Assembly: GCF_044704955.1 (NCBI RefSeq)
Contig: NC_091997.1
Coordinates: 33,046,001 to 33,110,000, forward strand
Direction of reading: 5' to 3'
Origin: Pristiophorus japonicus
Lineage: Eukaryota
DNA: 64,000 nucleotides
Positions 1,701-59,389 of this stretch are shown here, in pieces. The notes beneath the pieces are model-generated. The model did not search any database. It was not told the origin of the DNA and saw nothing but the letters and a program-made list of their open reading frames with translations. Position numbers and translations under genes: made by a program. Numbering within the stretch: position 1 is the stretch's first letter; the number at the start of each line of letters is the position of its first letter.

Positions 1701-2730
1701 GTCTTATACCCTGGCCGGGTGCTGGACATTTTGGGTGTGTTGCTCAAATTCGACAACACTTTAATTGGAAATGAATTAATATTTCTATAGATTGCTTTCG
1801 ATCGGGAATTCTTTTCAAAGCTGCTGTATAGTCCCAGCTCGCCTCCGCCAGGTTCTAAGTACAACTGTCCTGCTGTGTTGCAGTATTTTCATTGGCACGA
1901 AGAGCCTTGTTATTTCTGTGTTGATTGCAAACGAACATATTTGTTTATTTTACAATGCCTGAGTTTAATTCACAATCATGAAACGAACCGTCCCATAAAC
2001 CTTGGTATGTAACTAAACGGTAACGCAGTTTTTAAAAAATGTCATCAACATAGAGATGAATAATTAACTTTTCTGTTTCTTTTTTTTTACGTTTAGCAGT
2101 TATTTTTCTCGGATCCAACGAACTGCAAGGATTTATGAACGAACTCTGAAGAGAGAGCGCTGGCGTCAGTCAAAGCCTCTATGCTAATGTGTGCGAGCCG
2201 GCATGATGAAATACTTCCTCTAATATTTTGTATTCTTATACCGTGGGGAATACAACGACTCTCTAAAGTAAAAAAAAAAATTCACAACGAATGCACAGAT
2301 TGAAAGGTTAAATAAGTTACAGGAGTTAATCTTTTTTCCAAAGAATTTGTTGCAGTTTTGACTTCAATTTCAAAAGAAAACAAATAACGAGACTGATGTC
2401 ACATTCCACATGCTTGATTGGCAGAACGGCGGCGATCACACCGTAACACTTGCACGCTCTTCCTGGAACGTGGTGTGTTCATTTTTGGTTGGGTTAATAC
2501 GTCTCAACAGAATTATAATTAAAATTATTGTAAAAGTGCCAGACTGGTACAAATTAACTACTGTGCCTTGGGAGGACATATTGCGCAAGTCACCTTCAAA
2601 GGACATTTAAAATCAAATATTACGATCAATAAAAAAAAAATGTGTGGTAGTTTGGGAAACAAGTTAGTCAAATAAATAATGATGGGATATTTTTATATAG
2701 CTATTTGGCGAATAAGCAGGAATCTGACAT

Positions 2731-2763
2731 AGGAACATAAGAAATAGGAGCAGGATTAGGCCA
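2731..2763 (-). mobile_element. Very short 3' tail fragment of a CR1-type LINE/SINE
   Basis: AGGAACATAAGAAATAGGAGCAGGA is the reverse complement of the tail at about 9400-9425 (TCCTGCTCCTATTTCTTATGTTCTT). Confidence 0.6.
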
Positions 2764-3059
2764 AGATTGTGTTTATTAAGATAAATAGTGGCCTACTACA
2801 GGCCTTGGCAACAAAACCCAACATTGCTACTTGTTCATTCCAAGAGATGAGCGGCGAAATAATCTTCAGCATTTTCACATGAGATATCTGTGTTCTGCAG
2901 ATCTGTGTTCTACAGCTTGATGGCTGCCATTGCCATTCGACAGCACAACAGACACAATAGGACAAGATAATAACAGCATGCAGTCCGGAAGCTGCGGACT
3001 TGCCACCGCCTTTGAACCAATGTTGGCCCCTTAAGTGTTTGCTACAAGTTATGTTGCAT

Positions 3060-3135
3060 TCTTGGTACGATCACGTGATCACGTCACACGTCACGTGGTT
3101 CACCATATTGCAAGAGAAGCGGAGGTGATTTATTT
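3060..3135 (+). promoter_or_regulatory. E-box-rich promoter-like element upstream of the Hox11-like relic
   Basis: Palindrome GATCACGTGATC (3069-3080) and a second CACGTG (3092-3097), about 210 bp upstream of the relic ATG. Paired CACGTG boxes also occur in the HoxB7 promoter in this window. Confidence 0.35.
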
Positions 3136-3307
3136 GTCTTTAGATACATATATGAAGAATTGCACGTGAAAATAATTTCAATTTTGTCCAAATGCGAGTC
3201 TAACCTCTGATTTCGTGAGTACTGAGAGGCCTGCACTGCAATAGGCTGATCCTTCTGACTTTAGATGGAATCGTTTTTTAATAGCTGCTTATATATGTAT
3301 GTTGGCG

Positions 3308-4374
3308 ATGGAGTTTTATTTAATTAAACCATACCCTAATCCCCAACATTTTTTTAACTGTTTTCTATAAGGTTCGTCAGCAACATGCCTGCAGCAAACA
3401 AGAACCCAGTCAATAGAATTGGATTTCTTACTCGAGTTTCCAACACGTTAAACTTCCACCCGAATAAACATCCGCTCTAGAATGAGCGACAATTTGCACA
3501 GGGGAATGCGTCCAGGGAATAAAGTTTAAGCCTGGAACCGTTTCAAGGTTAGAAACTGCAGGAGGGAAAACAATTCCGCCACAGGAATAACAAGAGAAGT
3601 TCACTCGGTTGCAGCTAACTGCCCCAGATACGGCCATAAGGAGCCCAAAGCGCGAGCAGAGGCATCGAAATGCCAACACGACATTGCTTTAAAAAAATCA
3701 ATCCTCTATATTAAAACCTGGATTTTTACCCATACCGAATATTTACAATTAAAATTAATGAATGGTGCTTTAAATTTTAAGGACTCCACACCAAACATCC
3801 ACGATCAAGTACAATTTGCAGACTTGTTTTCACAGTGGCGTTGTTTATTTGCTTTTAGAGATCTAAAATCTCTATCCACCAACGAAACAAAATGTTAGCA
3901 CTCGCAACAATATACTGAGACTATACATTCTAAATGCGGATAAAAGTTAAAATATCAATCCCACGACTGTGCTGTGGCCCCATTTAAAAGCAACGTTTTC
4001 TTTTTATCAAGGCGTTCTATGCGGAGCGTACCCAGCAACAGACACTTTACTGCCTGCCTGTGTAAATTTTATGTGCCAACAGACGACTGGCTGACGAAAA
4101 AAAGAGACAGAGGCAGGGGTGCCTCTTGTAACAAACATCAAATTTGGTGCTAGCGTGAGTGGGGGAAAGAGAGATATTCCAACTCTACACAAACAAAGAA
4201 AAGGCCAACTGCTTTTAATCCCGGTATCTGAAGTTTATCTGACGCGATAAGTCGAAATTCTTATCATTGTTGGGTGAGTGGAAGAAAGCGGCAGACAAAT
4301 TCAGCTTGTGTCTGAAAAAAGTGGTGCATTTCATACAATGTCTATGGAATCGAACACACTCCACTGGAGACCCC
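3308..4374 (+). pseudogene. Putative eroded Hox11-like (HoxB11) pseudogene with two exon relics
   Basis: Exon 1: ATG GAG TTT TAT (MEFY vs MDFD) at 3308; S-N-M 3379-3387; D-F 3422; N-L..Q..V-R-E..F..L-E-P 3491-3540; G-G-K..I-P-P-Q (vs GRNGVLPQ) 3561-3584. Exon 2, after AG at 4081-4082: K-K-R 4097-4105; C..C-N-K-H-Q-I-W (vs CPYTKYQIR) 4120-4147; Y-T-N-K-E-K (vs YINKEK) 4186-4203; S-R-Y-L-K/L-S-D/R-*-V-E-I (vs SRMLNLTDRQVKI) 4219-4259; H-S-T-G-D-P (vs YFTGNP) 4357-4374. Multiple frameshifts and stops. Confidence 0.7.
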
Positions 4375-5886
4375 GACTCTCTCGGGCTGCTGTACACCCC
4401 ACCCGCTTAAAGTGGCCACTCTCCTTATTCTGGGACACATTTTGCTAGGTTTTAATTAGCATTTCTGCTGGTGCTAAATTCTTCACTCGTGGAGCTGAGC
4501 TTTTGACTTGAAAAATCAGCTCGGCTTCCAGATGGGACCAGATGTCGAAGGCCGTTTGGTTCCATGTAACTTTAAACGCTGACCTTGCAAATCCAACTGC
4601 AGTTATTTACTCTAGTTTTAAAATCCATTAAATTGAGGGCACCACACAATCCGAGGAATGAATGCGCTATCACTTAGATATCCACATTAAACTTGCATGT
4701 AACATCGAACGTCCTCGCCAGTATAAATAAACTGACACTCAAAGATTAATCTTGCAGTCGAATTTGTATTACAGGCCAGAACTAGCTTTCCAAAGAAACA
4801 CAGTGCAGCACCAGCCTTTAGCAGGGAGTATGAAAAGTTTATAATTGTCTCTTTATCACTGAAAGGAAACTTTAAGCTTTAATTTTCAATACGGCCGATT
4901 TAAATGCCCATGGCGCGCTTTAGACGCCATTTAGACTGTAAAACTAAGATGCACAGAAGCGTAGACATGTATAACTGTTGCTGTACCTTCCTGATATTGC
5001 ATATTCACAACGGACGCCATTTATTACATTGGACCCTTTCAGTACTTATTTGATTAAAACAAGTCAGAATGACATAATTATCCTTGCTTTCTCCATTAAT
5101 TCGTGTGCAACAATGTTTAAATGCCACAAAATACAATGTGTCAGTCCTGATTTAAACCATCCCAATTAATGTAATCCTCATTTCAACCTAAGCACGGTGT
5201 TGTGTCACAGGATAACAATAATATAAACCCGTTAATTTTAACATAAAAAGGTTTGGTAAGAATACTGGGTTGTAGAGTTGAATATCGTAGTTCTCAAAAT
5301 ATAGGAGCACTGAAAAATGAAGGAAGACTCATTTAATAATATATATTGTTGCATGCAATCCTGAGGGGAAATTATTACGCTAAAGAATACTTTGCATTAC
5401 CGCAAATTATTCGTTAACATCAACATTGTAATTGTTTGATAAACAAAATCCGTCATTTGAATTCCAGGATATGATGGAAACATGAACAATGTCGGTACAA
5501 GATATCCCCATTAGGTAAGAACAATTCTATCTGTTCCTCATCCTTTTGAAAAAAGTGAAGGGTTGAAGATATTTCTAACTAATAATTATTCAGAACTTTG
5601 CTTTTAAACTGTTCAGTTTCATAACATCTTTACTATGTTTTAAATGTAGTAATCAGTGGAAAGTTCTAAGCTAATTTGGCGCAACTAAATCTTTACCAGT
5701 ATTGAGAAAATATCGGTAAAAACTGTCTCTCGCTCTGCCATCTCGCAATCTCTCTGAAATTAACTTTACAGGGTTTGGAGAGATGCAATATTTTTATGGG
5801 TAAGTGATTGTCCGTGTTTTGTACAACCATTGCAAGTGCTTGCACTTTGTGTTACTCATAATCACACACAATTGTCTGAGAGTAGT

Positions 5887-6418
5887 CATCATCATCATAG
5901 GCAGTCCCTCGGAATCGTTGAAGACTTGCTTCCACTCCTAAAGTGAGTTATTTGGTGGCTGAACAGTCCAATACGAGATCCACAGACCCTGTCACAGGTG
6001 GGAGAGACATTCGTCGGGGGAAGCGGGGTGGGGGGGGGGGGGTGTTGGTGGGGATGGAACTGATTTGCTGCATGCTCCTTCTGCTGCCTGCGCCTGACCT
6101 CTTCACGCTCACGGCACTTTCTCCACTTAGGGCCGTCTTCGGCCAGGTGTCAGTGGTGATGTTGCACTTCATCAGGGAGGCTTTGAGAATGTTCTTGTAA
6201 CGTTTCCGCTGCCCATCTTTTGCTCATTTGCCGTGAAGGAGCTCCGAATAGAGCAATTGCTTAGGGAGTCTCATGTTTGACATGCGAACTATGTGGCCTG
6301 CCCAACGAAGCCGATGGTGTGTGGTCAGTGCTTCAATGCTGGGGATGTTGGCCTGGGCGAGGACACTGATATTTGTGCACTTGTCCTCCCAGGGAATTTG
6401 CAGGAGCTTGTGGAGACA
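5887..6418 (-). mobile_element. RTE-clade LINE, 3' end in sense orientation on the minus strand
   Basis: (ATG)n-type tail seen as CATCATCATCAT at 5887-5898. The minus-strand peptide QIPWEDKCTNISVL...RLRWAGHIVRMSNMRLPKQLLYSEL is typical of the RTE ORF C-terminus. Confidence 0.85.
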
Positions 6419-8859: not shown

Positions 8860-9427
8860 ATCACACCTGGAGTACTGCGTACAGTTTTGGTCTCCTTATT
8901 TAAGGAGGGATATACTTGCATTCGTGGCAGTTCAGAGAAGGTTCACTAGGCTGACTCCTGGGATGAAGGGGTTTTCTTATGAGGAAAGGTTGAGCAGGTT
9001 TGTCCTGTACTCATTGGAGTTTAGAAGAATGAGAGGTGATCTTATTGAAACATATAAGATACTGAGGGGGCTTGACAGGGTAGATACTGAGAGGATATTT
9101 CCCCTTGTGGGGGAATCTAGAACTAGGGGGCATAGTTTCAGAATAAATGGTCGCCCATTTAAGACAGAGATGAGAGGAATTTCTCCTCCCAGAGGCTTAG
9201 GAATCTTTGGAATTCTCTACCCCAGAGAGCTGTGGAAGCTGAGTCATTGAAAATATTCAAGGCTGATATTGACAGATTCTTGAACTATAGGGGAGTCAAG
9301 GGTTATGGGGATCAGGCAAGAACCTGGAGTTGAGGCCAAAATCAGATCAGCCCTGATGTTATTGAATGGTGGAGCAGGCTCGAGGGGCCTTATGGCCCAC
9401 TCCTGCTCCTATTTCTTATGTTCTTAC
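8860..9427 (+). mobile_element. 5'-truncated younger CR1-type LINE 3' end
   Basis: Peptide HLEYCVQFWSPY...VQRRFTRLTPGMKGFSYEERL...RRMRGDLIETYKIL, followed by a 3' UTR ending CTCCTGCTCCTATTTCTTATGTTCTTA. Confidence 0.9.
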
Positions 9428-13710: not shown

Positions 13711-15004
13711 GCGCTCGTCCCTCTGTCTCTATCTCTCTCCAGCTCTGTGTCTGTCTTTGTTTATTTATCCACCGCACTTTTGTCTCTCTGTCTGTCGATC
13801 TACCGCTCTCTCTCTAACGCAAGAGAAGTTCGACTAAAATCCCCAAATGGAAAAAAAAGAGACCAACGTGAAGACATGATGCGAATTGTGACTTTGGTAG
13901 ATATCGGGTGGAACACGACTTCTCTGTCTCTCCTTGTTAAGTTAAACGAATATTTGAATTTATCTTATTTCTTCTTTCGACTAAAAGTTACTGAATGTTC
14001 GAAGGCCAAACCGGGCAGTCACAACTTCACGCGAAGGTGGAGGATCGGCATTTATCTATTCCCAGAATACATAGGAACCCGAGCGGCCATGTTAACCCCA
14101 CGACACAACCCCGCAAAATGAAACAAGCCAGACCTGATTTCCGTGTGGGGGGCAATTTGTTACTTTCAACTTCCTTAATACATACCCTAGAACTAGGAGA
14201 GGTTAGGGGGTTTATTGGTGAGAAATATGCAGACCGTTTGTCCAGATGTGCGCCTCACGGGGAGGGAATGATTGTTTACATTGAAGTTTAAAAAAAGATA
14301 AGATATATTTTCTACATTCTATCCTGTCATTTCTTGTTTGCATCGATTTTTCCAACGCTCTCGCTATAACTATCATTGTAGTTATGATAAACTTATTTCT
14401 CCTGTACGTCCCATTTGCAATGCTGCCTGTGTGACCATAAAACAAGCTTTAGATTATTTCTCGACCACCGCTTTGATAGGAAGGCAAACACCAGCCTCTG
14501 GTTGGCAATTCTGATTTTTGTCTCTCATCTGTTATTGTTTCCTTCTTCCGCTCTCTCTCCCTCTCTCTCACATACACACTCTCTCTCCCCCCGGTCGCTC
14601 TCTCTCTCTTCCCTTCCCTTCTTTTCCACGCCTTTTTTCCGCCTTCCTCTTCTCACCTACATTCCCTGCCTCGGTCTGTCTGTCTCTCCGCCCTTTTCCA
14701 GCCTCGCTGCCGGCTGGATATTTAAAGCAGAAACGGCACCAATGCTAACGGTTTTTACCCAAAATGCTAACATTTTTTCTCTTAGCAGTTGCTGCGCGAT
14801 TCGCGGTATGTGTCTGTTTGTCCCCTGTTTACCTCCTCACTGCCTCCCTCTTCCTCTCCATGTCTTGCTGTTCTTCATCTTTCTGTCCCCCTTTATTCTT
14901 TCCCTTCTCGCTTTTTTTTTATCGCCCCTCTCTTTCTCTCTGCCTCTTTCTCAGCAAACGCTGATGTTTTAAGTGCCCCCCAACCCTTCTGGTCTAATAA
15001 GCAC

Positions 15005-15053
15005 TGCCTTTGAACTTCCGTCAGGTCAAGGTCACCTTTGACCCCGGGGTCAA
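15005..15053. promoter_or_regulatory. Cluster of nuclear-receptor half-sites (candidate enhancer)
   Basis: TGCCTTTGAACT 15005-15016; AGGTCA-AGGTCA (DR0) 15023-15034; minus-strand GGGTCA-A-AGGTGA (DR1) 15032-15044; perfect palindrome TTGACCCCGGGGTCAA 15038-15053. Confidence 0.5.
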
Positions 15054-18000
15054 GACAAACACATTCCACGACAGCTCAAACTTCCAAACATCGCTCCGGC
15101 AACAGATCAGTTTCACGATCTGTTAATGGCTGCCAGCAACCTCAGAGCTGAAACAAAGTATAAGAGGGGTTCAAACTTGGCGCTCCTCCCCCCTCTCGCC
15201 CCCTGTCGACAGAAAGTGAATCTATTTAGCAACCAGTTCCGTGGATGCTGGCCGTTCCACGGTGTGACGGAGTTAATGTTCTGTAACCTTGCCACGCTGC
15301 ACCAATAACAGGCAACAACCGTCGCCATGGCTACAGTTATATTTCACTGAACTTTAATAACATTTTGACGACTCATTTTGCAATGAGCCTCCCTTGGCAT
15401 AAATCCGACTGGCCAAACGAGCTGGAAAGTACACACAGCCCCGACTTCACATAAATATAACAGCTTCCTAAGTAGAGCTAAATTGTAACGGCGGGCAATC
15501 TGCATAATGCGCAGGATGGCGCAATCATCGCCCAGCCCTAATAGCAGTAATATTGTGCTATAAAATCTGCAGCGCGCATACGAACGAGGAGAGGAACGAG
15601 CGCAGATTCGACGGGTTCTGTTCATTGAGGGACTGAAGGACTGTCGCCCTGAAACAACGAATGAGAGTGGTGCTGGTGGGGGGAACCCTAAAGATACAGT
15701 AGGATTCTGACAGGTGAGTGAGTGCATGTTCCTGGTGGTCTGGCAATGGCGGGATTCTTGAACGTCACGCTTTGGGCCTTGATCGTACATTATTGAAGAT
15801 TGTCGCTCGCAAGTTCAAGAATAATACATCAGACAAACTAACGGCAGATGCCAAACCACATGTAAAAAGGATAGGTCCCCCCGAAAATCAGACTCCTCCC
15901 GCCCCCTCTTATCTCGGGGTCTAACCCCTTCGTTGTATTTACAGAATTCCAATGCAGCAATATAATTTCCCGGGAATCCCCCGCTTCGCATTTACCCCCG
16001 AGTTAAGATTTGGTTCCGCAGTCTCACATCGGTGTAATCCAGTGTAAATATTCGAGCAAATGTCGCCGGATCTGTGTTGATCTGGGCGTCTTTCTTCCGT
16101 CTCATTGAGAGGTGGTTGGGGAACACCTGAATATAGAATACCCACGCTCATTATTTTAGATTCCCGCCTTCATAACGAGCTGGATTCACATCTAGCGCTA
16201 TAAGTTTAGTTTCGGTTTAATGCGCAGTTTGCCGTTAATCTGTGCTGTGTTTATAAACAAATACTGCTTTTGTCTATTGGATTGTTGAGTTCTATTGTTT
16301 GTTTCTGCTCCCAGGATTTGGATTATTTTTGAATTGTTGCAACAAATGTTGCTTTTACTTCGTTCAATTTCTGATTTACTTGTGTCAGGGACTGATCACT
16401 TGGCGTGATTCTAGAATGTGGTCTTGTGTTCAGTGTGGCGGGAGTTTTAGTTATTCTGATGCAGAAAAAGAAAGGTGTGAAGAAACTTGATGACTTTGAA
16501 AAGATTTCGACTCTCGTCCTGACTTTGAGTTTCAGATGACTCCCTTTGGAAGAAATATCTCCTGCCTCACTCAGTCACGATTTCAAGTTTGCAATAACGC
16601 TTTAGTTCAAGGGAACGCATGACATTAGTGTCGATCGCAATGCAGAGACCATTACCCAGCATTATTTCCCCTGAAAGGATAAATCACTTCAAGTTAAATT
16701 ACTAATTATGATAATGCTGCTTGATACCCGGTTTCATTTTCATGATAATCCAACTGCTTCGTAGATGTTATACAAGGAAAAATGTGCAGACTTAAGATTT
16801 TTCTAATCAGTGATGTAGCCTTTTTTTGTTTATTTGTTCACTACCTTAAAGCAACAGGAAGGCTAGTCTGGGAGTTGGAAGTGGCTAATTGGAAAAGCAG
16901 TAAAGAATGGAAGACAGGTTAATGCACAATGATCTTTCAAAGTGGCATATATATTCCGACCTGCTTATGCTGTAACTCAAAACTGTATGAATACGACATC
17001 AATCATGTTCCCCTGATAGGAAGGCCCAGCAATTATTGAACAGTTCGCAGACAAACTTTCAACCCAGAGTTTAAAAAACAACTCGACGGTTAGTCTATAA
17101 TATATAAAAAGACAATCTCTTCAGTATAGTGGCCGCCTTTTCTCTCTATTCTAAATTGATGCAAGATTTAAAACAAATAAAAACACGATAGAGCAATGAA
17201 AAGACACCAACGTGAGTTTTGTTCCTTAAAATTAACTATTAGTGTAGTATGTTGGCCGCTTCATTTGTTATTTCATTTCACAATTACACTAACCAGGCAT
17301 GATCTAAATCGTTGAAGTTCAATTTTAAAATATTTTAGACTGTGACGTGCAATATGAAGTTTAACTTTGTTAGTGCATCTTAATGCTACAAATAAAACTA
17401 CGGAAAAATAGCTATGTTATTTTAGCCTTGAATTTAGTCTCAAGACAGTCACATAAAGGCCAAGTTCCCGTTAGGCCCATTTGTGGAGCAACACCGACCT
17501 CACGTGGCAATCTGAATTATTACAGCGGCGGCTTGTATTTTTCCAGTTAGCACAGTGCTGTATAAACATACGAAGAAAAGACTGTTTCGTTACTGAGACA
17601 ATTGGTACAAGAATCTCCAATTTTCGAAGACCTATTGTTCGCAAATATTAATTATCCATAGATCTTTCACCCTCTAAATGGATGAATACTTCGCAGAGTC
17701 AGTGCAAACTCGTCTGCTTTATACCACCGTTATGATGTGCCTCCTCTACTTTTTCAAAGATTAGCCCAACATGTGAGTGTATATTAACAGATATTATTGC
17801 AATATTAACAGGGATACACAGATTATTAAACACTTTATTTTGTGAGTAAAAATCGGATTTATTTTATGAAATCAGTATAAGCTATTGAATCTGGAATAAC
17901 CCATTTATAAATAGTATTTTTCCGATGCTAAGTTGGAAGGGAAAAATGGGGAAAAGTACTGCGGGTCTGAAAAGCATATGTTGGCACTATATCTTCCGAA

Positions 18001-26246: not shown

Positions 26247-26973
26247 ATGTCATGTTCTGAGAATTCTGCTTCAAGCTCGTTTTCAGTGAGGTCTTTAATT
26301 TGCTCTAACCGGACTGAACCTTACTGTCCTGGGGGTTATATGTCCTCCCGACCGGAGCAGGGCTACGCGGTGCAGAATTGGCAAGTTGGCCTAGCGCATC
26401 GTAAACAAGCGGAGATGAACCACCAACAAGGTCTAGGTTTGGTTCCACATCAGTACGTGCCAGGCATGGCAGGATGGACAACCCCGTCACCATCCAGCCA
26501 CATAGGCCGACTCCAGCAGCTAAGCACTTACTCCTTCGCGTCCAGCGTCAAGGAAGAAGCCAACTACTGTTTATTGGACGGGGATAAGCACGCGAAGACC
26601 CACCCCGAGGGCTCAATGTACCCGAGGGTGATTTCTGAAATGTGCACAAGTGACAGTGGCAGGCTCCCCGTGCCCAGCTACTTCCGTCCAGAACCGAATT
26701 ATTCATCAAGCAAAGCGACGGATTACAACCAGCCGCAGCCAGTCACCGCTCCGTGCTCGCTTCAGTCCAGCATTCCCTTCACTTCTTCCTTCGCCACGTC
26801 GTCCTCCTCCTCCAAACCAGGTGAAAAAGACACAAAAGTGAGCACCTCAAACGATCCAGGCCGCGGAGAGCCGGGAAAGAGCACAGGGCGAAGAGAGGGG
26901 GCCTATGTACAAGAGCCATCCTCTTTACAATTTCCTGGCGCGGATAAGAGCCTTTCCGAGAAGGAAACAAAAG
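26247..26973 (+). CDS. HoxB10: Homeobox protein Hox-B10, exon 1
   Basis: Hox10-type N-terminus MSCSENSASSSFSVRSLI, plus VKEEANYCL and PVPSYFR motifs. Phase-1 donor G|GTGGGT at 26974. Confidence 0.9.
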
Positions 26974-29019
26974 GTGGGTAAAACCATGAACCTAAGGAAG
27001 ACAAACAATTACACGGCAATTGGAGCAGGAACATAGGCAGCTCTCTCATCTGCGGCAAGGTGACTTTATGTAGGCCATAAAGGAGCCTTTTTGTCTCCAA
27101 CACAAAGATCCCTCAGTACAAATTAATACTTTGAGTAATTTATAGGACAGGTCCCTTACGGTAGAGTAAATTACAAACACGTTGAAGTGACCCTTTTAAA
27201 GATCAAAACAGCGGAAGGTTCCTGTTCCGAAGACCATTCCTCAGTTGCATTAGAAACCGCTGTAAAAGCCCCCAGTATGAACAACCCACCGAGCCAAAAA
27301 CAATTGAACATTTTCAAATGAAAGGCGTGCTTAAAAATAACTTAAAACTGCAGTTATATCAAGTGCAACGTAAACTTAAAATAGCAGTCACGTTATCAAA
27401 GGAAAAACGACACAACAGGTCTATTTAGCTATATAATTTTATGAGCGTATATACTATATATTATAATTATATACACAGATAGCTGTTTACAAAATTACAT
27501 AGATATCTATATAATTATAATGTTGAAATATGTGTGTACCTATATCATTGTACATGTATATAATTATACGTAAACACAGGGGCAAACGAATTTAATTGAC
27601 CTGCTAATTCGCATCTACATCTTTATGAATATAGGTATGTATGTGTGCATATATGTGAGTAACATTGCAAGGATAGCTAGTTTTATGCATACATATATAG
27701 AAACATAAATAATACAGATGAATATTCCTTTAAATGAAATCAGAGGACGTCCTCGAGTTTAAGGTTTTGGAACAAACATTGCATTGGTGGCCAGCAATGT
27801 GTTTTAGTATATAGCTGTGGCGGTTGCTATATTATTGGAATTGAGCGTGACATCCAGTGAACTGAAATCTAAGCACCCGAGCGACGCTCCAGCAATGGTT
27901 GGCTCACATATCAAAACAATCTAAGATGCAACTATAAATTCAAAATACTGAATATAAATACAATGAGCTGGGTGGCACCATGTGATATTTACTTAAGCTC
28001 CCTTTGTTGTCATGGGGCTAGATTATGGCGCCAAAGGAAAATTACATCGTGCAGCGCTGCAGAGGTATTGCAGCATTATTTTGTGGGACCTCGCTCCTCA
28101 GTAAGTTGGGAATAAAGGAGCCACAAATTGAACTGACATGCTAATTAGTGATCCGAGGTGCCCTAAATGGTATTTCCTGGTAGGTATCTATGATGGTGCT
28201 CTGGCTGTGGTTTGTATCTAACACAATCTCCGAGAGCTGTGATGAATATCAAACCCTTTGTAGTAACGCCTTACCGATTCTTTTTGAAATTGACTATTGT
28301 GTAACAGGTGACCAATAAGCTACGCTTCTGTGTTTTTTAGGAGAACATTAAAATATATGTTTATTACCCCCTGCCCCCCCCCCCCCCAACACACACACAT
28401 ACACACTGAACCGCTACACAGGAGGAAAGACGTGAGTAAACACCAGGATGCAATAACTCGTAGGAAGTTATAATTAACTCGGTGCCGCCATAACGGATTT
28501 CCCCCATCTAATCCCACACACAAACATGAAACATTGCAAAGCAAAGCCACTTCAACTACATTAAAGCCGGCAGGCCCTTTGTGAAATCGTCGCTATCTCC
28601 AACAGTTCAAGTGGCTGCTTTCTTGCTTGTGTCTGTTTTTGTGCTGTTGGGGTCTAAATATAAATGCTGAACTGATGGGCTGATCTCGCTAGCTAGCACT
28701 GATTTTATTGAGTCTTTACCCACACAATCAAGAGACACAAACGAGGAGACTGTACTAAACATCAATTAACAATGGAGTATACAACTGTCGGTATTGTTAT
28801 GGAAATCTGGGACATGTTAAGCACACGCTGCACTTTGAATTTGAGGCATGGCGTGTCCCTTGTCCCGCTAGATAGACAGCCAGCACCTCACAAGTTAAAT
28901 TAACTCTCAATTAGCAAGACATAGTTACGTATTTCATAACTTTTAATACGTATTTTTAATTTGAATTGTGTATGGGTGCATTGATGGCATTTATTAACAG
29001 CAACAGACTAAATCGTACA

Positions 29020-29415
29020 CAGGGGGCATAGATTTAAAGTCGTTAGTAGAAGGAGTAGAAAGAAAGAAAGAAAGACTTACATTTATATAGCGCTTTTCAC
29101 GACCACCGGACGTCTCAAAGCGCTTTACATCTAATTAAGTACTTTTGGAATGTAGCCACTGATGTAATTAGAGGGGAGATGAGGAAAAAAAATCACCCAG
29201 ATGGTGATGGGGGTCTGGAACTCACTGCCTGAAAGGGTGGTAGAGGCAGTAACCCTCATCACATTTAAAAGTACTTGAATATGCACTTGAATGCCGTAAC
29301 CTACAGCGCTAGGGACCGAGAGCTGGAAATTGGGATTCGACTGGATAGCTCTTTTTCGGCCAGCACAGACACGATGGGTCGAATGGCCTCCTTCTGTGTC
29401 GTAACTTTGTATGAT
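29020..29415 (+). mobile_element. CR1-type LINE 3' end inside the HoxB10 intron, with a nested minus-strand SINE tail (29058-29167)
   Basis: AGGGGGCATAGATTTAAAG...GGTCTGGAACTCACTGCCTGAAAGGGTGGTAGAGGCAG...GGGTCGAATGGCCTCCTTCTGTG, interrupted by (AAAG)n ACTTACATTTATATAGCGC... Confidence 0.8.
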
Positions 29416-32400
29416 TATTTGAAAGCAGGAGTGTGCACTCAAACCACAGATTGGGAGATTGTTAATTGATAACGTTTAGTGTAACCTGGCAAATAGGCTT
29501 GGCATAGGGACAGTTGTAATTTACCTATAAACATCCTCCGTAGATGTGGGGACTTTCCTAGCCTTCTTACCTATGAATAGTTGAGCTGGTGGCCAACATT
29601 TAATTCCGTAGAGTGCAATATCATTGAGCAGTTTTATTTATTTTTCCAAAATATGTGTAATATATCATTGCTGTGCTCCAGTTGATGTGTTCAGTTTCAG
29701 GAGATTATTTGGCTTGCAAGGGACACTGAATTTTCATTTCTAATTGATGACAAAAATCTTAGGAAAACACTAAAGGCTATGACAACAACGTCTCCGCCAT
29801 CTTTGCTGCATTGTAACAACGCCAGCTTCATACAGATAACTTAATAACGCTACAAAGTAGTTAATAAAGATGCAGGCCTTCGATTGAGTTGGGAGTTTGA
29901 CTGCTTTTAAGATTGAACTTGCGCATAACAAAGCAAGAATTAAAACGAGACCGTGCATTGCGATTCATAGGTGCCAGGTACTTCCCAAACAATTTCTATA
30001 TGTGACACATTTTATTGTTCTAAAATGATGATAAAAGTTGCGATTTAGACCCGCGAGTGGGATTGAGACACATAGTACAATACGACTTTACTGCATGACA
30101 CTCAAATACTTTACTCAGTCAATAATTCGCAGACGGCTTCAAGGTACATTTTAAATTTGCATTTTAATTTTTAATCTGAACCGCAGTTTGTGTAGTAGGA
30201 CCGTATTTCTTTTCTGTTCCGCTCCTGTTGAGTAATTTTCCGCATTTTAAATACATTCAGGCCAAAGTAATCACAGCATGCAGGTTCCATGTTGATCCGA
30301 AGGCCCCACTCAATTAAGCTGCCGCATTTGAACAGAAAATGTCACACCTGATGCAACTCTTAGCCACAGCATAACCCGAAACAGCAACAAACACCGACAA
30401 AGGAGACTACCGGAGAAGCCTGGGGAGATTTCAGACCCTCTACTATCTAGTTCCTTCTCTTTTTGACCATGTTGAAATATTAGGTCAAAAGGGAAACATA
30501 ATTTAGCCCCGTGTCTTGCACGTTTGTATTTGCTTACAAACTATTCATTTGAAATCCAAGGCAAATTCGCATAGATTCATTACCACCGCAACAGACGCAA
30601 GAATCATTGCTAATAAGCCGCTATTGCTTCAGTCAGGCTGCAATAGTTTGCGAATGTTTAATTACAGGTTTATGACTTAAAATAATATCTCAGAACAGAA
30701 AGCTCCCTACAAAGTTAATATTGATGAATTGTGATACTGAATGTGACGGAATTTATGTTATGACATTGAGTTCTAACCAAGGACATGGCCAATCAATAAT
30801 CATTTATAGATTCTATAAGCTGTGATATTCAGTTAGTTTTCGCGTTTTACTCCTCAGAACTTGTTTGTAAAGAATTGTCCCCTGCACTATATACACCTTT
30901 TCTTTTATGGAGCGAATATTTTAACGCTATATGGATCGCTTCTTTGTGATGTTATCCGTTTTGCAAGTTTATTTATTTACAGCGGTTGAATGTATAAACC
31001 TGGAGATTTCTTATGTTTCATGATTTTTAAACACCTCCAGCAAAACTTGCCCAATGTTAGAGTGTAAGTCACATCAACGAAATTACATCTGATATTTTTT
31101 TATCCTAAATGCTCTCTGTTCAATGGCTATCCATATTTACAAGCGGGTTAAATCATGCTGTTTCATTGTAACTAGAGAATTTCATAAAATACTTTTGATT
31201 TCCCCAAGATACAAGTATGTTGTATTTAACCAACACACACTGCAATGATATTGAGAGACGCTGGTATATCTTTGCATCGACAATTTGGATACATTTGACC
31301 CATTTGCCAATAATGACTTCTGCTTCATCAATTTTTCAATTCAATACAGCGATACTGGCGGCATCAGCAACATTTGGCTTGTTTACCTCAATAAAGAAGG
31401 GAACCAGAGATCAGTTTACAATCTAAAACAAACTACTAATAAGTCTAAATGTTATTGTAGAAACAGTCCAGTCTCACAATACTCACAAAAGGACGGTGAA
31501 TGAGAAAAAGCGCGTCAGCTGTTGCGTTAAAGTTAACAAAATCAACATGAGTCTTTCAGCAAATTCAGTAAAATGAAAAGCGAGGGGAAGCTTTATTAAA
31601 AAAGGCTCATGATTTCCTGTTGAAAACATCTGCGCCCATGTTCCTTCTTTCGTGCACTCTGCTCTCTAAACGACTACTTCCCTTCCCTTGCATAAACTAC
31701 AACCTTTAAGTGAATATCCAGTGTTAAGGCGATATTATAGGGGTTAAAGGTTATTTTGCAATGCAACAACCCGCTTCTAAATCAATTCTCAAAAGGTCAT
31801 CTGCACTAAACATTGACTGTGAGAAGTTAATAGATGTTTAAATGCTATTTGGTGAGATACCCCTAGGAAATAGATAGGTTTATCTTAAACTAATTACTCA
31901 CATTTTTAACAGAAAGTTAATATTATTAGATAGAATTCAGAGGTGCAATTTCCTGCTAATGACAAGCTATATGAGCTGTGTTTTAAACACAGTGACTTTT
32001 TTGCAATGAAGGTTTCGGGATAACCATGTCTTTTTATAATCAGACTGTAAGCTCTTTATAAAGGTGAAGGGACAGGAGTACTAGCACGTCTGTGATGGCT
32101 TATTCCATTATATTGCGTCTCAATCTTGTTAGAAATCAAAGATTAGGTGTAATGTGCATTAGAAATAACATTTTAGATTTGCCCTTAATTAGACCTTCGT
32201 TGTAACTATTTGTCCAGGTGCTGGATTCTCCTTTAAGTAAAGTTGCTGGAAAACTTATTTTGATAAGTCGTCAAGTTACATTAGAGCAGGTAATGCCACA
32301 GTGTGACACAATATTCTACAGTGTGTGCTAATGTGGAACGGGCTAATATATGGACGGTTCAGATTCCACTGTTGACTCTGATCCGCCACTCCAACCCCCT

Positions 32401-32543
32401 CCACGCTCCCACCTGGGTAACCTCGTTGAAAATCCTGAGTCATGGTATCGTTGATGGTGAAAGAAGGGGGGAGGCAGAGGGGGACGGGACAGACCCGTTT
32501 TATTCAGCAGGTCGTCTGACAATGTTTTTTTCCCGATTGACAG

Positions 32544-32815
32544 AGAGCGAAAAGGCTGAGAATACGATAAACTGGCTGACGCCGAAGGGCGGTAGGAAGA
32601 AACGCTGCCCATACACCAAGCACCAGACACTGGAGTTGGAGAAGGAATTCCTCTTTAACATGTATTTAACTCGAGAGCGCCGCCTAGAGATCAGTCGGGG
32701 CGTGAATCTATCCGACAGACAGGTCAAAATCTGGTTTCAAAACCGAAGAATGAAACTGAAAAAGATGAGCAGAGAGCACAGAGTTCGAGAAATATCGGCT
32801 GCGTTCCCCATCTGA
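32544..32815 (+). CDS. HoxB10: Homeobox protein Hox-B10, exon 2 (homeodomain); spliced product 332 aa
   Basis: Acceptor CAG at 32541-32543 is phase-compatible with exon 1. [42 protein letters not shown]...[17 protein letters not shown] is paralog group 10. Cluster B is assigned from the neighbouring genes. Confidence 0.93.
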
Positions 32816-34482: not shown

Positions 34483-36769
34483 AAACATTTAAATGAAAGA
34501 AACAAGTACCAAGATTGAACAATTTTTAATGATCTTGTTACAATGTTATAAAAAGACAGATTCTTACCTAGCGACTCTCTTTGTCTGTGTTCCTTTGACT
34601 AACATCAAGTGGCTAAAATTATTCATGAACCAACCCCCACACCTGGCTCCTAGCGACTAAACAGAAAATAATTTGCATAAAATCCTGCTAGCTATTCATT
34701 TCACGTGTTTATTGAAAAATGTTATTCATCTATATTTTCCCTCCCTACGCCTATAAATACCTCAAAGCTTCTCGGTTCACGTGGGGGAAAAGCTACATCT
34801 GGGTGGGGAACTAATTGGACCCCGACCTATTTAAAAAGATTTAGCCTCAATTTCACGGTTTAATTTCTCATTCAGTTCCACACTACAGATGTGCTGTAAG
34901 GCATCCCATCAAAACGTGAATGGAATGTGAGAAACCCATAAATTAATACTCACAGTAACAATTGCAGATGAAGTATAACGGCAAATTAAAATAGATATAC
35001 ACACAGGCGAGTTCTTGATCAGTCAATGGTCTTGAGAAGTAATGTCCATTGGGAAATCGGTAGTTGTTCTTTTCAACATCTGTTGCATAAATAATGTGAA
35101 TATATAACAATCGGTGAAAACCCAGCTTGTAACATGCCATGAGTGCCGATTATACCTCTCGCAGTGAACGTACACCCTTAGTGGATATTATACACTATAA
35201 TTAAAATGTGTTTGTACTTAGGAATAACGTGTCTTTTAAATGTTCATCAAAGTGTCTGACATTTAATACAAGCAATCTATGGTGGTCTGTCGTGTCAATT
35301 AGTTTTACATGCGTGTTTTTAGATAGAAATTTGTCAGATACTAAATGTGTAATGTTGGATAAAATGTAATATTTATTTTTAAAAATATAAAGAAACTTGT
35401 TATACCAAAGACTATTAACGTTGTGCCCATCACCTCTTTATTGCTAAGCACACTGAACTCCGTACAATGCCCCTGTAAGAGAGAGGGGATTACAAAAAAC
35501 TGTTAATATTTGAACAATATGTAAATTCACCAATAACTGTTTCAATGAAATATTTTAAGTTCATGGTGTATGTTAAATGTTGATATAATTTTTTTTGTAT
35601 AGCATGTGCTGTATATTTCACGGCTTAAAGTCGTTGCATTATTTCCTAGGCCTTGTCACAGGTCAATATTAAAATGCGGATTTAAAAACAAAATAAGAAA
35701 ATATCGTGTTTGGGTGCCTTTCTGTAGTTCTTAATACTTTTACTCAATGTTCAAGGGTCTGCTTAAAGTTTTTGGTCGCCATTTCCCCGCGAGTGGCTCT
35801 TCCTTTAAATCTGGCTCGTGTATTTCATGAACGGTGGTTGGCTGAATGTGAACCCGTGAAATTGACCTGAAATGGACAAGTTGATGGTTGAGAGAGAGAA
35901 AAAAAGACAGTGAATTCCGATGCTTCCAGCCCGAAAGAAAACCCTGCAGTTTGAAATTTATTTGGTATCCGGTGTCGGTGATTTAAATACCAGCGAGACG
36001 GTCGTAATCTGACTGTGGGCCCTGACGATGCGCCACGGACGACCACGTCTGCTTTTGTGAAGTTTTATGGCTTGTAAATATGTTTGGCAAGTTGCTGTCA
36101 TGTAGGACTTGTTGGACTTGGGCAGTTTGGCTCCGAGCGTCATGTCACACAACATAGCGTTGGGATCAGGAAAATAGTCACGCTGCTCTCTTCTTGACAA
36201 ACTTCAAGTGGAATCTCGCTAACTGTTGCCCAAATTTGCTTACAGAGACTTTGGAAAAACATGATGGGAATGGTAGGACATTGTTGTCACGTTTAGCTGT
36301 GTTTTGCCAGCGACCCTTTGTAAGGCTGCTTAGAGTTGCTGTGCCTGCGTGGAGATTTAAATTGTTGGTTTTACTAAGTTTGTTGTTACAGCAGTCTAGT
36401 GACTGGTTTAAAAAGTGAAAACTTTGATCCTTTACTATGGTAACGATGCAACATAGTGAGGCCTATTGCTTCAGTTTCTCAGATGTTTATTTGCACTCTG
36501 AATACGAACGAAGCAAGGTCAAAATGGTGCAATCGGCCCTGTTGGAATAATTAAACAGTGATATATGCAATTTTGGAGCCGTCAGTGACTGAGATTTCTA
36601 ACCACCCTCCCTTCCTTTTCTTTCTTAGAAACATGAGACTCTTTTTATCAATTGAATGATTATTTTTAAAGAGTAATGTCTAGCAAAAAAACATATTTGA
36701 CAATGATGGTCTTTACTGTTGGAACTGAAGTCGACTCATTCAGTCCAGTCTATGGCGCAAACGAATTGG

Positions 36770-36853
36770 AACTGCGGTGTGATTTAGGTAGTTTCATGTT
36801 GTTGGGCTTGTGTTTGATCGCAGTGACAAGAAACTGCCTGGATCACTCCAGTT
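36770..36853 (+). ncRNA. mir-196a: miR-196a precursor; mature 5p arm 36785-36806
   Basis: Exact mature sequence TAGGTAGTTTCATGTTGTTGGG. The 3p arm CAGTGACAAGAAACTGCCTGGA (36821-36842) pairs with it, and the basal stem is AACTG/CAGTT. Position between Hox10 and Hox9 is canonical. Confidence 0.97.
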
Positions 36854-45812: not shown

Positions 45813-48800
45813 TTAACTATCTGTATATTTATGTATCTATNNNNNNNNNNNNNNNNNNNNNNNNNNNNNNNNNNNNNNNNNNNNNNNNNNNNNNNNNNNN
45901 NNNNNNNNNNNNNNNNNNNNNNNNNNNNNNNNNNNNNNNNNNNNNNNNNNNNNNNNNNNNNNNNNNNNNNNNNNNNNNNNNNNNNNNNNNNNNNNNNNNN
46001 NNNNNNTATAGAGAGATTATAGATGAGAGTTGTAAAATGACGAGAGTAAATTAATGCAGAAACCGATCTGCTAGCCGTTACATCCATATATATATAATCA
46101 CATATTGCAAAAGGCTTTGAGAACCACAATTTAAAAACGAAGAGAAATATTACTGAATCAATTATAAAAATTACCATGAGGAATTTGCACCCAAACAACT
46201 AATAGGGACATTTTCATGTAATGCCTTTAACTTGCAGACAATTACATGCTAAACAAAAATGCGTTCAAAAGTGATATGTATAAATCTCTGATAATAAGGT
46301 ACATATTTCACCATAGTCGAAAGAAAAGTTGATCAATTTCATCGGGTGTACAGGGTAGATGACATTTCTGACAACGCAGCAAGGGATAATTAGATGGGAG
46401 GGAGCGGTGCTCGCCACCTTAAAAGCTTGCTCCTTAAGTTGGTTTAGTGGAAGGGCAGCTATGGATATCTCATAGCCATGTTAAAAAATAAATCTATGTA
46501 AAGACGCATTAACACCTTCTTATTAATGTTTGGGGTTATGCGGCCGTTCGAAACTGCTTTTACTGGGCGAGATTAAAATAATTACAGTATCAGCATGTCG
46601 TACAGTAGGATTAATATAATATCAGATATTCTCATTTCAATATTTTTTACAAACACAAGAAACGAATACAAAAAGAAAGCATAAATGAGTCTTGCATGGC
46701 GGAGGAGGAGGAGTTAGGAAGGTGTCTGTCATTATAGGAAATTCAGTGTGGTGTGCTGCAATAAAATAATATGACCGTTGTAAAAGTTTATAGGGTATAA
46801 ATTTCTGAAGGTTAAGAATTGAACGTCTGTAAAACAAACACAGCAAAGGGAAAACTTTCAGAACCTATTAAATTAAACTCACAATTGGAGGTGGCAAGCA
46901 ATAAAAATATGGCTTTGTGTTTTATTTCTGAGGGGTAATAGAAAGGAACTGGATTTTTTTAAAGGGAAAATCCCGGTGAAGATTGCGGTGCAACCAACAT
47001 GCTTTTTAGAATCTAAAGCAAGCGACGCCCTCTTTTGTTTTACTTCCTAACCATTTCAGGCTGCCAGAAACTACTGCAATAAAAAGCTATACAGAATCTG
47101 GCGAGACGTCTGGAGCGAGGTCCTTGGATATGTTTACAGCCCAGCGCCCATGCCTGGGACTTTATTCTAAAGCAGAATGCCCAATTGTTTCGTCTCGAAG
47201 GTGGAGACAATAGAGTTCTGAAAGCTTTCTTTCCCTCCTTTTTTTTCTTTTGCTTCTTCCTCTTCTTTACTGCCCATTGGCAATTCAGGTTGTTAGCAAT
47301 CCGCTACAGCACGACACTAAGGATGTCGTTTATTGGTACAGTCTACGGTTGTATGTGACGATGGAATTGAAGAGCTTAAACATTCTTCCTCCAACGCGGT
47401 TTGGGTCTAATGAATTCTTTATATTCAAGATTTTATCGCTCTATTGCGCATATTTGCTAATGCTTTTACAACATGTTCTTTCTTAAATGTCCAGAACACT
47501 TCTCCTTGACAACAGTAGGCGGCAGCATTGTTCCACCAAACTCAGGCGTGGCGCTGCACCGGACATTAGTCCTGGAGTCCAGGATTCAGTCGATATAACA
47601 CACATGTAACAGGCATACAGCTCCTGCTTCAATTCTCCCCTGCCCTTCCTGCTCGATCCTGTTGCGTCATATTATAAGAATAAAATATTTAAATACTCTT
47701 ACTAAAACTTTGCCCCATCAACTGTTTTGCTGAGTATTGGCAAAATGTCACTAAAGCTTATTCGCAATTATCGTCGTTACAATGTGTTCATCTGCGCCAC
47801 GTTTTAAGCAGTTTTAATTTTTATTTTCAAACACCTTTATAAACCCGAGAAGGAAAAAAAACAAGATCATCCATTTAGGACAAGATAGTGCACAGTATGA
47901 GGCTACCGTCAATAAATAAAAGAGGGTTCCATTATAGCGAAATCACGAGATTTGCTGCACTTGGGAAATATATACATTTTTAAGGATTCGGACTTTTAAA
48001 TGTGCGTGCGCAGAGCTGACTATCTAACAAACTGTATGTTGACTTGCAGTTGGCTATTCTAAAACGATGCATGCATTGGGAAAATAATTTGTTATACTTC
48101 TTTAAAGACATAAACAAGTTACGTCGAAAGATGCTCCAAGTGTACATTTTCATTTCTGAATGCGTAGCGTCCAAATGAACTTTCAACCCCGTTATAAGTC
48201 TCACATCTCAGTGCACATACCTTTCGATTCAATCTGCCCTAGACTGTTGTACATTTATTGATTATTGTTTGTGTGACTGTCTTCCTTTCAACAAACCATA
48301 TACCACACATTTTCAGTGCAATGACCATCCGCATGGGCATTTCCTCCAGACCGTGCACATTTATTCTTTCTCAGATTTTATTGATTTCGTTTTTTTTCTG
48401 TTGCATATTTTTAGAAGATACACAGTTTAGGTGACCACCCCCTGTCTGTCTGTCTCTGTATTTAAATCAAACGGTAGTCCTGTGTTATATATAACAGAAA
48501 GGGAGGTGTGCAGCAATCCCGTGCAATAGGGTTTGCGCGGAACGGGACTGATGCAACATTATCTAAAAGCAAAACTGGAATTCCGCCCAAGATAAATGCA
48601 AGACTATACTTCAGTTAGGGTTGTTCTTTCTCTTTCTCTGTCTCTGTCCCTGTTTCTTTTTTCGTGTCTGACTTTCTCTGTTTCATTTTCCTGCACGATC
48701 ATATATATTTTTAAATAGATAACACGTTGTCTATAATTTCAGTAAAAGCGAAATATAACACAAGGATGCTGAATACAAGCATTTTTTGGTGATACTTTAT

Positions 48801-57650: not shown

Positions 57651-59389
57651 AATCTGTAACTGTTTTACTTGTAGTTTGTTTTGTACAGATTAGAGGGAAT
57701 AACCCATATCTATATTGTACAAGTACAGTTATATATGGTCTGTGCGTTAGCCTTTTTGATGTGGTGAATTTGTCGTTGCTGTAATTAGCTTGCTTTACCT
57801 TGTGTGTTTAAAGGAAATCATGTCAGTGACTTTATATTTGTTACTGTATCGATGTAATTTCATGTCAGTAAGAAATAGTTTTGAAAAGGAGCTGTGAGTA
57901 GTCACAGTCCGTGTACAGATTATTAATGTTCGTCCCGTATAAACTCCTGTTATAGTTAAATATATAAAAATAGTGTTCTGGTGGAAGTGTTGAGTGTAAC
58001 TTCTATGTACATTTTTTGATATTTAAAAATGGACCATTTATGTCTGTTCAGTTGAGTTTTCGCGCTTTAGTATGAAGGATGTATACTGTTCTGTGAAATA
58101 AAATTAGGGTTTTTTTTCGTTATTTTGCCTCGCTATCAAAGTTCATATTTTGTACAACACAGACACAGCATAATCATAACATGTCCCTCAACCAAAATAC
58201 CAAAGGCTGGGAGGCGTTTCATGAGTCAATGCCAATTCCTCTGTCAGACTAACCCCATTATTTTCGCTCGGACTAATTCCCAGTTTTGCGCCCCAGTGTA
58301 TAAACACTCGACTCTTTAAAACTAGCTCTCCTGGTTAAACAGAATTCGGCAATTACACGCAACAAAGGGACTGGAAGCACACCGAACGTTGGCGTGGGAG
58401 CTGTAAACCTATCTGTGTCTAAATAAAGATATAATACATTGTGAAGACAATGTAGCTGGGGTAGGCGTCGGGTGTCAAGGCATTGCATTTCGGCGGGTAA
58501 ACAGTTGCAAAATTACTCGTAAAAGGTGCAGTTAATATATGCATTGTACGTAAATGCACTTTACATAGCAAACATAAGTGTCCCCGCCAATGAAATATTT
58601 TTTTGCCGGAAAGCAGGGACGAATATTATTTTAACAAATACTGGCAACATATAAAATGGGCAATGCCATTTTCACATACAAACGATTGTAATTGTTTACA
58701 TAAGAATTAACTAATTTTGCTATTTAAAAACATTCTGACGATTACTATAATTGAAATATTCTCTTATGGTGGTTTAAGCGCCTCGTCTTGTAGAGAGTGA
58801 ATTCAGTCAGTTTACCAGGAGCTCGAGATTGCGATCGGTTTATTCTCGCTCTTGTCCTTTTGGAGTATACAGGACGAGTGAATCCTTCTGACTTGATCAA
58901 AGAAACCGGTATACTATTGTATTCAAATACACTGCGTTCCTTCAAAAGTAAATATCAGGCAAATATGGATGAAAATTTAATTTTGAGAAAATAACACGTC
59001 GAACTGTGAAAACCGGCTTTTAAAATGAAACCAGGCAAATTTCGTTAAACGAACCGTTTTATCTACTTAAGCTAAACTGAATCCATAATTTTACATCATA
59101 TGTTTCAACAAATTGCGCCAATCGCAGCCGCACAGAAAGAGTCCAGGACTATTTGATTTTCGCAAAAGCTATTTTTTATTTTATGTAGCTACCCTTCTTT
59201 CTACGGAAAGAAAAGAGGCGAATGCGGGAAACACGGAGGAATGGGCTTTGGTTTAAACTGGCACAGAATGAAAAGACAATTCATATAAACATTGCCATTT
59301 TGTAAAAGAGCATTTAATAAAAAATATTCTTTTTTTGCCATTTTGCTTTAGCACAAAACATGGCGGCGAGGGGGCCTGTTGTTAGGAGT

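Follow-up and report, generated by a model that had tools for sequence, protein, structure and literature searches.

HoxB clusters are described as lacking the genes B11 and B12, according to the accessible text of one account (10.1101/2024.07.20.604409). An earlier note on the DNA studied here, made from the letters alone, claimed that the HoxB cluster in it still holds a decayed, two-exon HoxB11 gene. Is this stretch indeed what is left of HoxB11, and if so, how did it come to its present state? The window, by which we mean the whole stretch of DNA analysed, comprises 64,000 nucleotides of Pristiophorus japonicus DNA (assembly GCF_044704955.1, contig NC_091997.1, positions 33,046,001 to 33,110,000, forward strand). 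Unless stated otherwise, positions are those of the window.

The relic lies between HoxB13 and HoxB10

The window contains, all intact and on the + strand, Hox10, Hox9, Hox8 and Hox7; it also contains mir-196, and a Hox13 gene ends ~48 kb before it, within the 110 kb of upstream sequence that was examined. This order and content (13, 10, 9, 8, 7) identify the cluster as HoxB. Two features of this context are relevant here:

26247..32815, + strand: intact HoxB10 (context; candidate donor of the linker patch described below)
36776..36849, + strand: mir-196 (Rfam RF00256, 68.5 bits)

HoxB13 lies 51 kb upstream of the relic and HoxB10 22 kb downstream of it, so that the cluster reads B13-relic-B10-mir196-B9-B8-B7. 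It thus occupies the position of a group-11 gene, between groups 13/12 and 10, on the + strand, which confirms the position and orientation 5' of HoxB10 claimed for it.

Intact Hox11 genes are present elsewhere in the genome. Matches to intact Hox11 exon 1 were obtained for three of nine scored candidates, none of them on the contig of the relic (these counts are lower bounds). According to their neighbours, the three genes belong to HoxA, HoxC and HoxD, and a tree of 33 selected intact proteins agrees with this assignment. This tree contains no fourth Hox11 clade, the divergent Hox11 proteins in it carrying the source labels C11, D11b or cyclostome, and no intact HoxB11 was seen among the homologs examined. 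Between B13 and the relic there is no trace of a HoxB12 relic, the best group-12 window (5.7 bits) being located upstream of B13. Neither was a HoxB14 relic found within 50 kb above B13, where the best exon-2 score in 298 windows was 2.7 bits.

Several other features of the clusters were observed. The intron of HoxB10 (26974-32543) is 5.6 kb long, far above the 1.2-1.6 kb of those of A10 and D10. Positions 1-2400 of the window form a further single-copy island above the relic, which has a CpG o/e of 1.2 at 2001-2400 and no Hox signal. Among the blastn matches listed, a 20-27-nt element located 1.8 kb below HoxB13 recurs at the corresponding place downstream of HoxA13 and HoxD13; it is possibly a CTCF-type site. 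Other noncoding elements, at 36047-36113 (B10-B9), 46722-46816 (B9-B8) and 59387-59559 (post-B7), have paralogs in HoxA among these matches, and the last of them also in HoxD. The HoxC rows of this blastn comparison consisted mostly of simple repeats and were left out. The HoxC cluster contains C12, C11 and C10, which are 38-45 kb apart in GC-rich sequence with many simple repeats, and C11 has His/Pro/Ala tracts.

A decayed homeobox is present on the + strand

The homeobox remnant occupies positions 4083 to ~4300 on the + strand and is single-copy. Its features are:

4077..4082, + strand: putative splice acceptor (phase 1, like all Hox genes built; adds ~2 bits)
4120..4290, + strand: decayed homeobox of group 11 (stop codon at 4151-4153; several indels of 1-4 nt; WFQNRR, the recognition helix, destroyed)
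AG 4081-4082, KKR 4099, KHQIW 4133, YTNKEK 4186, SRYLK 4219 and VEI 4249, + strand: exon-2 landmarks, present as letters
4357..4374, + strand: possible C-terminal T-G-x-P motif (HSTGDP 4357)

Every landmark quoted in the earlier note, here and in the presumed exon 1, is present as letters where it was placed. For exon 2, the likeness to Hox11 that was read from them holds. The nhmmer search with a Hox11 profile that had been proposed, run over both strands of 174 kb, found exon 2 at 4115-4259 (17.0 bits, E=2.1e-4), and the group-10 model scored 6.2-8.8 bits at 4080-4171. In a pair-HMM of neutral decay, the parameters of which were tuned on the relic exon 2 itself, exon 2 scored 21.8 bits, a value equalled in none of 1000 dinucleotide shuffles and none of 876 genomic windows. 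Untuned settings gave 12.7-19.2 bits versus shuffle maxima of ~2. When 1032 non-genic HoxB windows were scanned, the relic was the sole outlier (23.2 bits; next unrelated window 7.1), and the same scan picked up the positive controls evx2, HoxD14 and the HoxA14 relic. The reference set consisted of 22 Hox coding sequences built from the same genome, in which a few donor sites outside group 11 are possibly misplaced.

Simpler alignments are less discriminating between groups. Plain DNA alignment of exon 2 against 3000-4600 exceeded all 200 shuffles for C11 (z 8.3), D11 (z 7.3) and A11 (z 4.3), and also for A10 (z 8.4) and D10 (z 5.3); the highest plain local score was that of HoxA10 (2497, versus 2410 for C11). 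At the protein level, frameshift alignments (BLOSUM62) were weak, with scores of 30-59. The HSTGDP assigned to the C-terminus stands as letters at 4357; however, to match the group-11 C-terminal (T/S)GNPL, the alignment needs an insertion of ~50 nt, and the posterior is just 0.5-0.7.

The frame is disabled. Between 4083 and 4420 there are 3-5 stops in each of the frames, together with several indels, and WFQNRR is gone; the relic region has no open frame and no match to PF12045. The contig showed 0 differences over 2735-5908 in three runs of the same sample, and the relic stretch has one match in the whole genome, genome counts being lower bounds. Among the sequencing runs listed as containing the stretch, all were DNA from this one sample and none was RNA. 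The relic makes no Hox protein, and it is most likely functionless.

The homeobox belongs to paralog group 11

The comparison with other paralog groups gave group 11 as the best match. For homeodomain positions 3-60, group 11 scored 28.9 bits, as against 6.2 for group 9, 5.0-5.8 for group 10, -2.7 for group 12 and -2.0 for group 13. The strongest signal comes from positions 23-45 (11.6 bits for group 11 versus -0.7 to -1.9 for group 10), and the YINKEKRLQLSRMLNL region of the group-11 homeodomain can be recognized in the relic; neither the homeodomain region nor the exon 1 of group 10 can. All 16 of 16 group-11 diagnostic sites agree, in an alignment that was made under the group-11 model and is biased to that extent.

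As single genes, D11 (28.2 bits), C11 (24.7) and A11 (23.4) were the best matches, the best other gene scoring 7.7, and D11 is the closest paralog. At sites invariant in A11, C11 and D11, the identity of the relic is 72, 73 and 65% by codon position. At 30 variable silent sites, it agrees with A11 at 12, with C11 at 14 and with D11 at 17. Models of an exact copy scored lower on the relic than models in which the silent sites are free. These silent sites and scores imply that the relic is not a recent copy of A11, C11 or D11. Moreover, its D11-like residues (N23, G-x-P) are also found in C11 and in hagfish Hox11, and are therefore ancestral.

The homeodomain scores, the cluster order, the single copy, the three other Hox11 genes, all intact, and a syntenic element downstream (see below) together uphold the identification as a decayed group-11 gene. 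With its disabled frame, single copy and no intact ortholog elsewhere in the genome (counts being lower bounds), the relic has the attributes of a unitary pseudogene. We consider it very probable that the stretch is a noncoding HoxB11 unitary pseudogene that was left in place.

Possible remnants of exon 1, promoter and intron

The earlier note described a gene of two exons. The features bearing on the regions upstream of exon 2 are:

3126..3185, + strand: possible remnant of a Hox11 proximal promoter, weak (E-box word at 3157-3167; 41/60 identity to HoxD11 -167..-106)
3308..3995, + strand: presumed exon 1, decayed past statistical recognition (starting with ATG 3308 and possibly ending in K-S-N at 3986-3994)
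ATG/MEFY 3308, SNM 3379, DF 3422, NL 3491, RE 3514, LEP 3532 and GGK..IPPQ 3561, + strand: exon-1 landmarks, as letters
4064..4075, + strand: half of a conserved Hox11 intron element (9-nt core at 4067)

Exon 1 gave no nhmmer match and no Pfam (PF12045) match. With a profile from the same genome, it scored 6.4 bits, which was matched by none of 1000 shuffles but by 35 of 876 genomic windows. This score stems from 3403-3449, a segment that is absent from the landmarks of the earlier note and not collinear with them; it shares a diagonal with a match to A11 at 3499-3592 (3 of 200 shuffles as good). A broader profile of 13 proteins gave 0.4 bits. The spacing of SNM, DF, NL and RE is near that of A11 and D11, and the SNM..LEP block scored -3.1 bits, equalled by 3 of 200 shuffles and 99 of 800 genomic windows. 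The exon-1 landmarks therefore exist as letters but do not rise above the genomic background (77 of 356 windows as good with the broader profile), and what had been presented as about ten landmarks comes down, as independent evidence, to one exon plus its flanks. The two-exon anatomy is only weakly shown.

Upstream of the presumed exon 1, the match of 3126..3185 to HoxD11 was equalled by 2 of 200 shuffles, and the promoter core profile scored 4.1 bits there, rank 3 of 1388 windows. A model of promoter, UTR and ATG was negative above the relic (-3 to -4 bits), and plain local upstream matches of similar strength were also obtained for B10 and C11. At 3070-3100, which is 216-236 nt upstream of the putative ATG, there are four CACGT(G/C) words; the Hox genes built commonly have a single word of this type 100-175 nt upstream of their ATG.

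The introns of A11, C11 and D11 have in common an element located 58-107 nt past the donor. The 174 kb of HoxB contain its 9-nt core a single time on the + strand, at 4067, immediately ahead of exon 2; as a profile, the element scores just 1.0 bit there. A model of D11 from donor to element gave 3.0 bits, with 5 of 1260 genomic windows as good, or 172 of 1260 once the word itself was left out. A splice donor of the relic was not found. These observations suggest that most of the intron has been deleted. The remnants of exon 1, promoter and intron are individually weak and were partly picked after looking; read together, they suggest a putative exon 1 at ~3308-3995, followed by an intron that would be mostly lost.

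A downstream element marks the Hox11-Hox10 interval

The position of the Hox11 site within HoxB can also be assessed from the noncoding sequence below the relic:

15004..15049, + strand: noncoding element, marker of the Hox11-Hox10 interval (paralogs downstream of the stop codons of HoxA11, at 2431 nt, and HoxD11, at 1682 nt)

At 15004-15049, a profile without any HoxB copy, built from those of A and D, scored 24.7 bits, and the next unrelated of 1736 windows reached 5.2. The element is the top match between A and D within the 3.2-kb flanks downstream of Hox11; it is single copy and contains nuclear-receptor-like half sites. No clear HoxC copy was obtained (best 7.0 bits). The element follows Hox11 in A and D, which places the Hox11 site of HoxB above 15 kb, the side on which the relic lies. 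The gap from relic to element is 10.6 kb, of which at least 5.6 kb is high-copy repeat. The 3' flank at 4331-5900 shows no similarity to the downstream regions of the Hox11 genes (38, 4 and 55 of 60 shuffles as good). The element would have been kept by selection, probably for the regulation of HoxB10.

The A11/D11 promoter core has its best match in the 174 kb at 15020-15102 (14.8 bits), and not above the relic. The sequence at 15020-16100 is CpG-rich, with a strong donor-like site at ~15713, an acceptor-like site at ~15946 and a VKIWF word at 16001-16017; it could be the promoter of a lncRNA or due to chance. A second relic at 15-16 kb was considered and dropped, since the coding score is at most 1.9 bits over 14901-16700 and the element has its place downstream of Hox11.

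The start of exon 2 resembles group 10

The 5' end of exon 2 differs in affinity from the homeobox that follows it:

4085..4141, + strand: group-10-like linker and N-terminal arm (W-L-T...K-H-Q in register; possibly converted from HoxB10, or lengthened by a slippage insertion of 12-14 nt)

Past the acceptor-like site, the frame reads D-W-L-T-K-K-R-D-R-G-R-G-A-S-C-N-K-H-Q, in which the spacing between W and KHQ is exactly that of groups 9 and 10. Over its first ~55 nt, exon 2 is closer to group 10 than to group 11, and positions -7..+2 score 10.2 bits for group 10 versus 0.0 for group 11. Chimeric models, in which a group-10 5' part precedes a group-11 homeobox, reach 35-39 bits versus 24, and their gain is +9 to +13 bits when long gaps are cheap. 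A gain of 10.8 bits was seen in 1 of 5538 simulations of Hox11 only, with slippage-type insertions, versus 234 of 1560 chimera simulations. Thus, set against the short linker of group 11, which has no tryptophan, group 10 fits by 9-13 bits, next to which a reading as Hox11 plus insertion exists; the NWLTAKSGR-type linker of group 10 fits with the 10.2 bits and the one null simulation in 5538 just given, a likeness that was noticed post hoc.

Retention of an ancestral tryptophan linker was ruled out as its source. Among 265 proteins, which included three hagfish and two lamprey Hox11, none combines a Hox11 homeodomain with a group-10-type linker (two have an unrelated W), so that a WLT-type linker is not an ancestral trait of Hox11.

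These results make it plausible that ectopic conversion from HoxB10 patched HoxB11, a variant of the best explanation rather than an exclusive alternative to it, and one to which we give about an even chance. A break in the intron would have been repaired with the similar homeobox of Hox10 as the template. The repair would have exchanged exon 2 from its start to approximately homeodomain position 12 and taken out most of the intron, and it may even have been the inactivating event. The intron element adjoining the patch also speaks for conversion. Several points weigh against it. The WLT linker was noticed after the fact. The stretch can also be read as Hox11, with KKR at 4099 and a 12-14-nt insertion of three similar hexamers (4101-4120). 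A10 fits the patch better than B10 does (13.1 versus 7.9 bits), and the 5' junction of the patch would be non-homologous.

Other origins of the relic

A second possibility is that the relic is a secondary local product, i.e., a tandem duplicate, a B10/B11 fusion generated by unequal crossover, or an overwritten B12 site. Such an origin could account for the group-10-like 5' end of exon 2, and for the better promoter-core match and the VKIWF word at 15-16 kb. However, neither a group-10 nor a group-12 exon-1 signal is present at the relic, the 15-kb sequence is the post-Hox11 element in a region of no coding signal (best 1.9 bits over 14901-16700), and the 1032 windows contain no second homeobox relic. 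We regard it as quite improbable.

Slightly less probable again is an insertion from elsewhere: HoxD11, C11 or A11 would have been retroposed or duplicated into the HoxB interval, and the copy would then have decayed. D11 is the best single match for the homeobox, the promoter word and the intron word, and exon 1 of the relic is not demonstrable. Yet the position and strand are correct for HoxB11 and a syntenic element lies downstream; intron-like sequence, rather than exon 1, adjoins exon 2; and the silent sites are not D11-specific, N23 and G-x-P being ancestral. The joined exons and the poly(A) remnant of a processed copy, an origin that the earlier note had itself raised against its reading, were not found: there is no run of seven or more As in 4375-5200, where an old tail could have decayed.

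Finally, the relic might come from a duplicate of HoxB10 alone that decayed, or resemble Hox11 by chance; this is the least probable reading of all and largely refuted: the group-10 exon-2 model does reach 13.5-14.8 bits, A-rich codons can match by composition and the protein-level alignments are weak, but positions 23-45 favour group 11 and no shuffle or genomic window reaches the score of exon 2.

Decay and probable history of HoxB11

Taking the relic as HoxB11 left in place, its decay can be compared with that of another Hox relic of the same genome. The relic has accumulated ~0.3 substitutions per site (0.2-0.45 within 2 bits), with a short-gap rate of 0.045-0.08. For the HoxA14 relic, the decay is at most 0.3, a value that includes the divergence between A14 and D14, and the gap rate is 0.005. 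The substitution depth is thus similar, and the indel rate of the HoxB11 relic is ~10 times that of the HoxA14 relic. The surroundings of the relic form a repeat-free island at ~2.8-5.6 kb, with a CpG o/e of 0.68-0.99 over 2401-5600. Sharks evolve slowly, and the survival of the relic may be owed to this slow evolution and to a CpG-rich region free of repeat insertions. Exon 2 is still visible because its ancestor was almost invariant and is well known, which does not hold for exon 1.

HoxB11 would have arisen with the vertebrate genome duplications, become redundant with A11, C11 and D11 and then been inactivated; neutral decay since then would account for the ~0.3 substitutions per site, the many small indels and the loss of most of the intron. 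HoxA14 is intact in lobe-finned fishes, namely lungfish and coelacanth (PMC3038165, available part), so the loss of HoxA14 in sharks postdates their split from bony fishes. The relic is more eroded than that of HoxA14, and hence the loss of HoxB11 is probably older. The data are compatible with one loss of HoxB11 before the split of sharks and bony fishes. A possible scenario, against which we lean slightly, is that HoxB11 was inactivated near the base of the gnathostomes by recombination with HoxB10, that a Hox10 patch and a truncated Hox11 intron were kept, and that the post-Hox11 enhancer outlived the gene.

That HoxB11 once existed is not surprising in itself. It was expected from the genome duplications, and the relic, a physical remnant of a gene described as absent from living jawed vertebrates, makes this inference measurable. 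It is known from one genome, as one heavily decayed copy. The relic bears on whether the gene was lost once or repeatedly, on the timing of the loss relative to those of HoxA14 and HoxB12, and on the nature of the fourth Hox11 lineage. If the Hox10 patch is real, it records a conversion between neighbouring paralog groups inside a vertebrate Hox cluster. If the scenario above holds, relics of the same gene in other sharks, in rays and in chimaeras would permit reconstruction of the HoxB11 homeobox and a test of the relationships of the four clusters. The 15-kb element, an enhancer-like shared sequence that outlived its gene, bears on the spacer between B9/B10 and B13 that has been studied in mouse.

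Comparison with known systems

Among the titles listed and the text available, we found no description of the HoxB11 relic, prior mention in Ravi 2009, Oulion 2010 or Hara 2018 being possible. The available portions of 10.1101/2025.06.08.657570, PMC3038165, PMC13097845 and PMC8713815 do not mention it. The in-place pseudogenes HoxA14 and HoxB14 of the elephant shark are the sole chondrichthyan Hox pseudogenes named in the accessible text of a review (PMC3707753). Like these, the relic is a disabled posterior Hox gene left in place in a cluster of a cartilaginous fish; it differs in group and position, and in its roughly tenfold higher indel rate. The HoxA14 pseudogene used for this comparison is:

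9020-9301 of the HoxA stretch, - strand: exons 2 and 3 of the HoxA14 pseudogene, ~6.5 kb upstream of HoxA13 (scores with the HoxD14 model 40.7 and 10.8 bits)

HoxD14 itself is apparently intact, with three exons, between evx2 and HoxD13; together with the HoxA14 relic and the homologs found, it points to the genome of a cartilaginous fish.

Two further cases are the HoxD12 pseudogene of a caecilian and the HoxD13 pseudogene of coelacanth, which, in the part of PMC3091776 available, are relics with frameshifts, located in the expanded interval, invaded by repeats, that the lost Hox gene left. In contrast to HoxB11, HoxD12 and HoxD13 survive intact in other lineages living today, and for HoxD13, blastx aligns both exons. 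The HoxB11 relic is invisible at the protein level, and no living ortholog was found.

The 15-kb element also has a counterpart in a known system, and it may correspond to the element RIX itself. The HoxD regulatory regions RVIII and RIX are located between Hoxd11 and Hoxd10 according to the available part of PMC3091776, and the 15-kb element is paralogous to the HoxD element of that interval. No HoxB paralog of RVIII/RIX was found described among the titles listed.

With intact HoxA11, HoxC11 and HoxD11 (PF12045 and PF00046), the relic shares its homeobox ancestry, its orientation, its place above Hox10, the downstream element and part of the intron element; it differs from them in having no open frame, PF12045 match or recognition helix, and in its group-10-like linker. 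Hox relics left in place are already known as a kind, and the HoxB11 relic is a new case of it.
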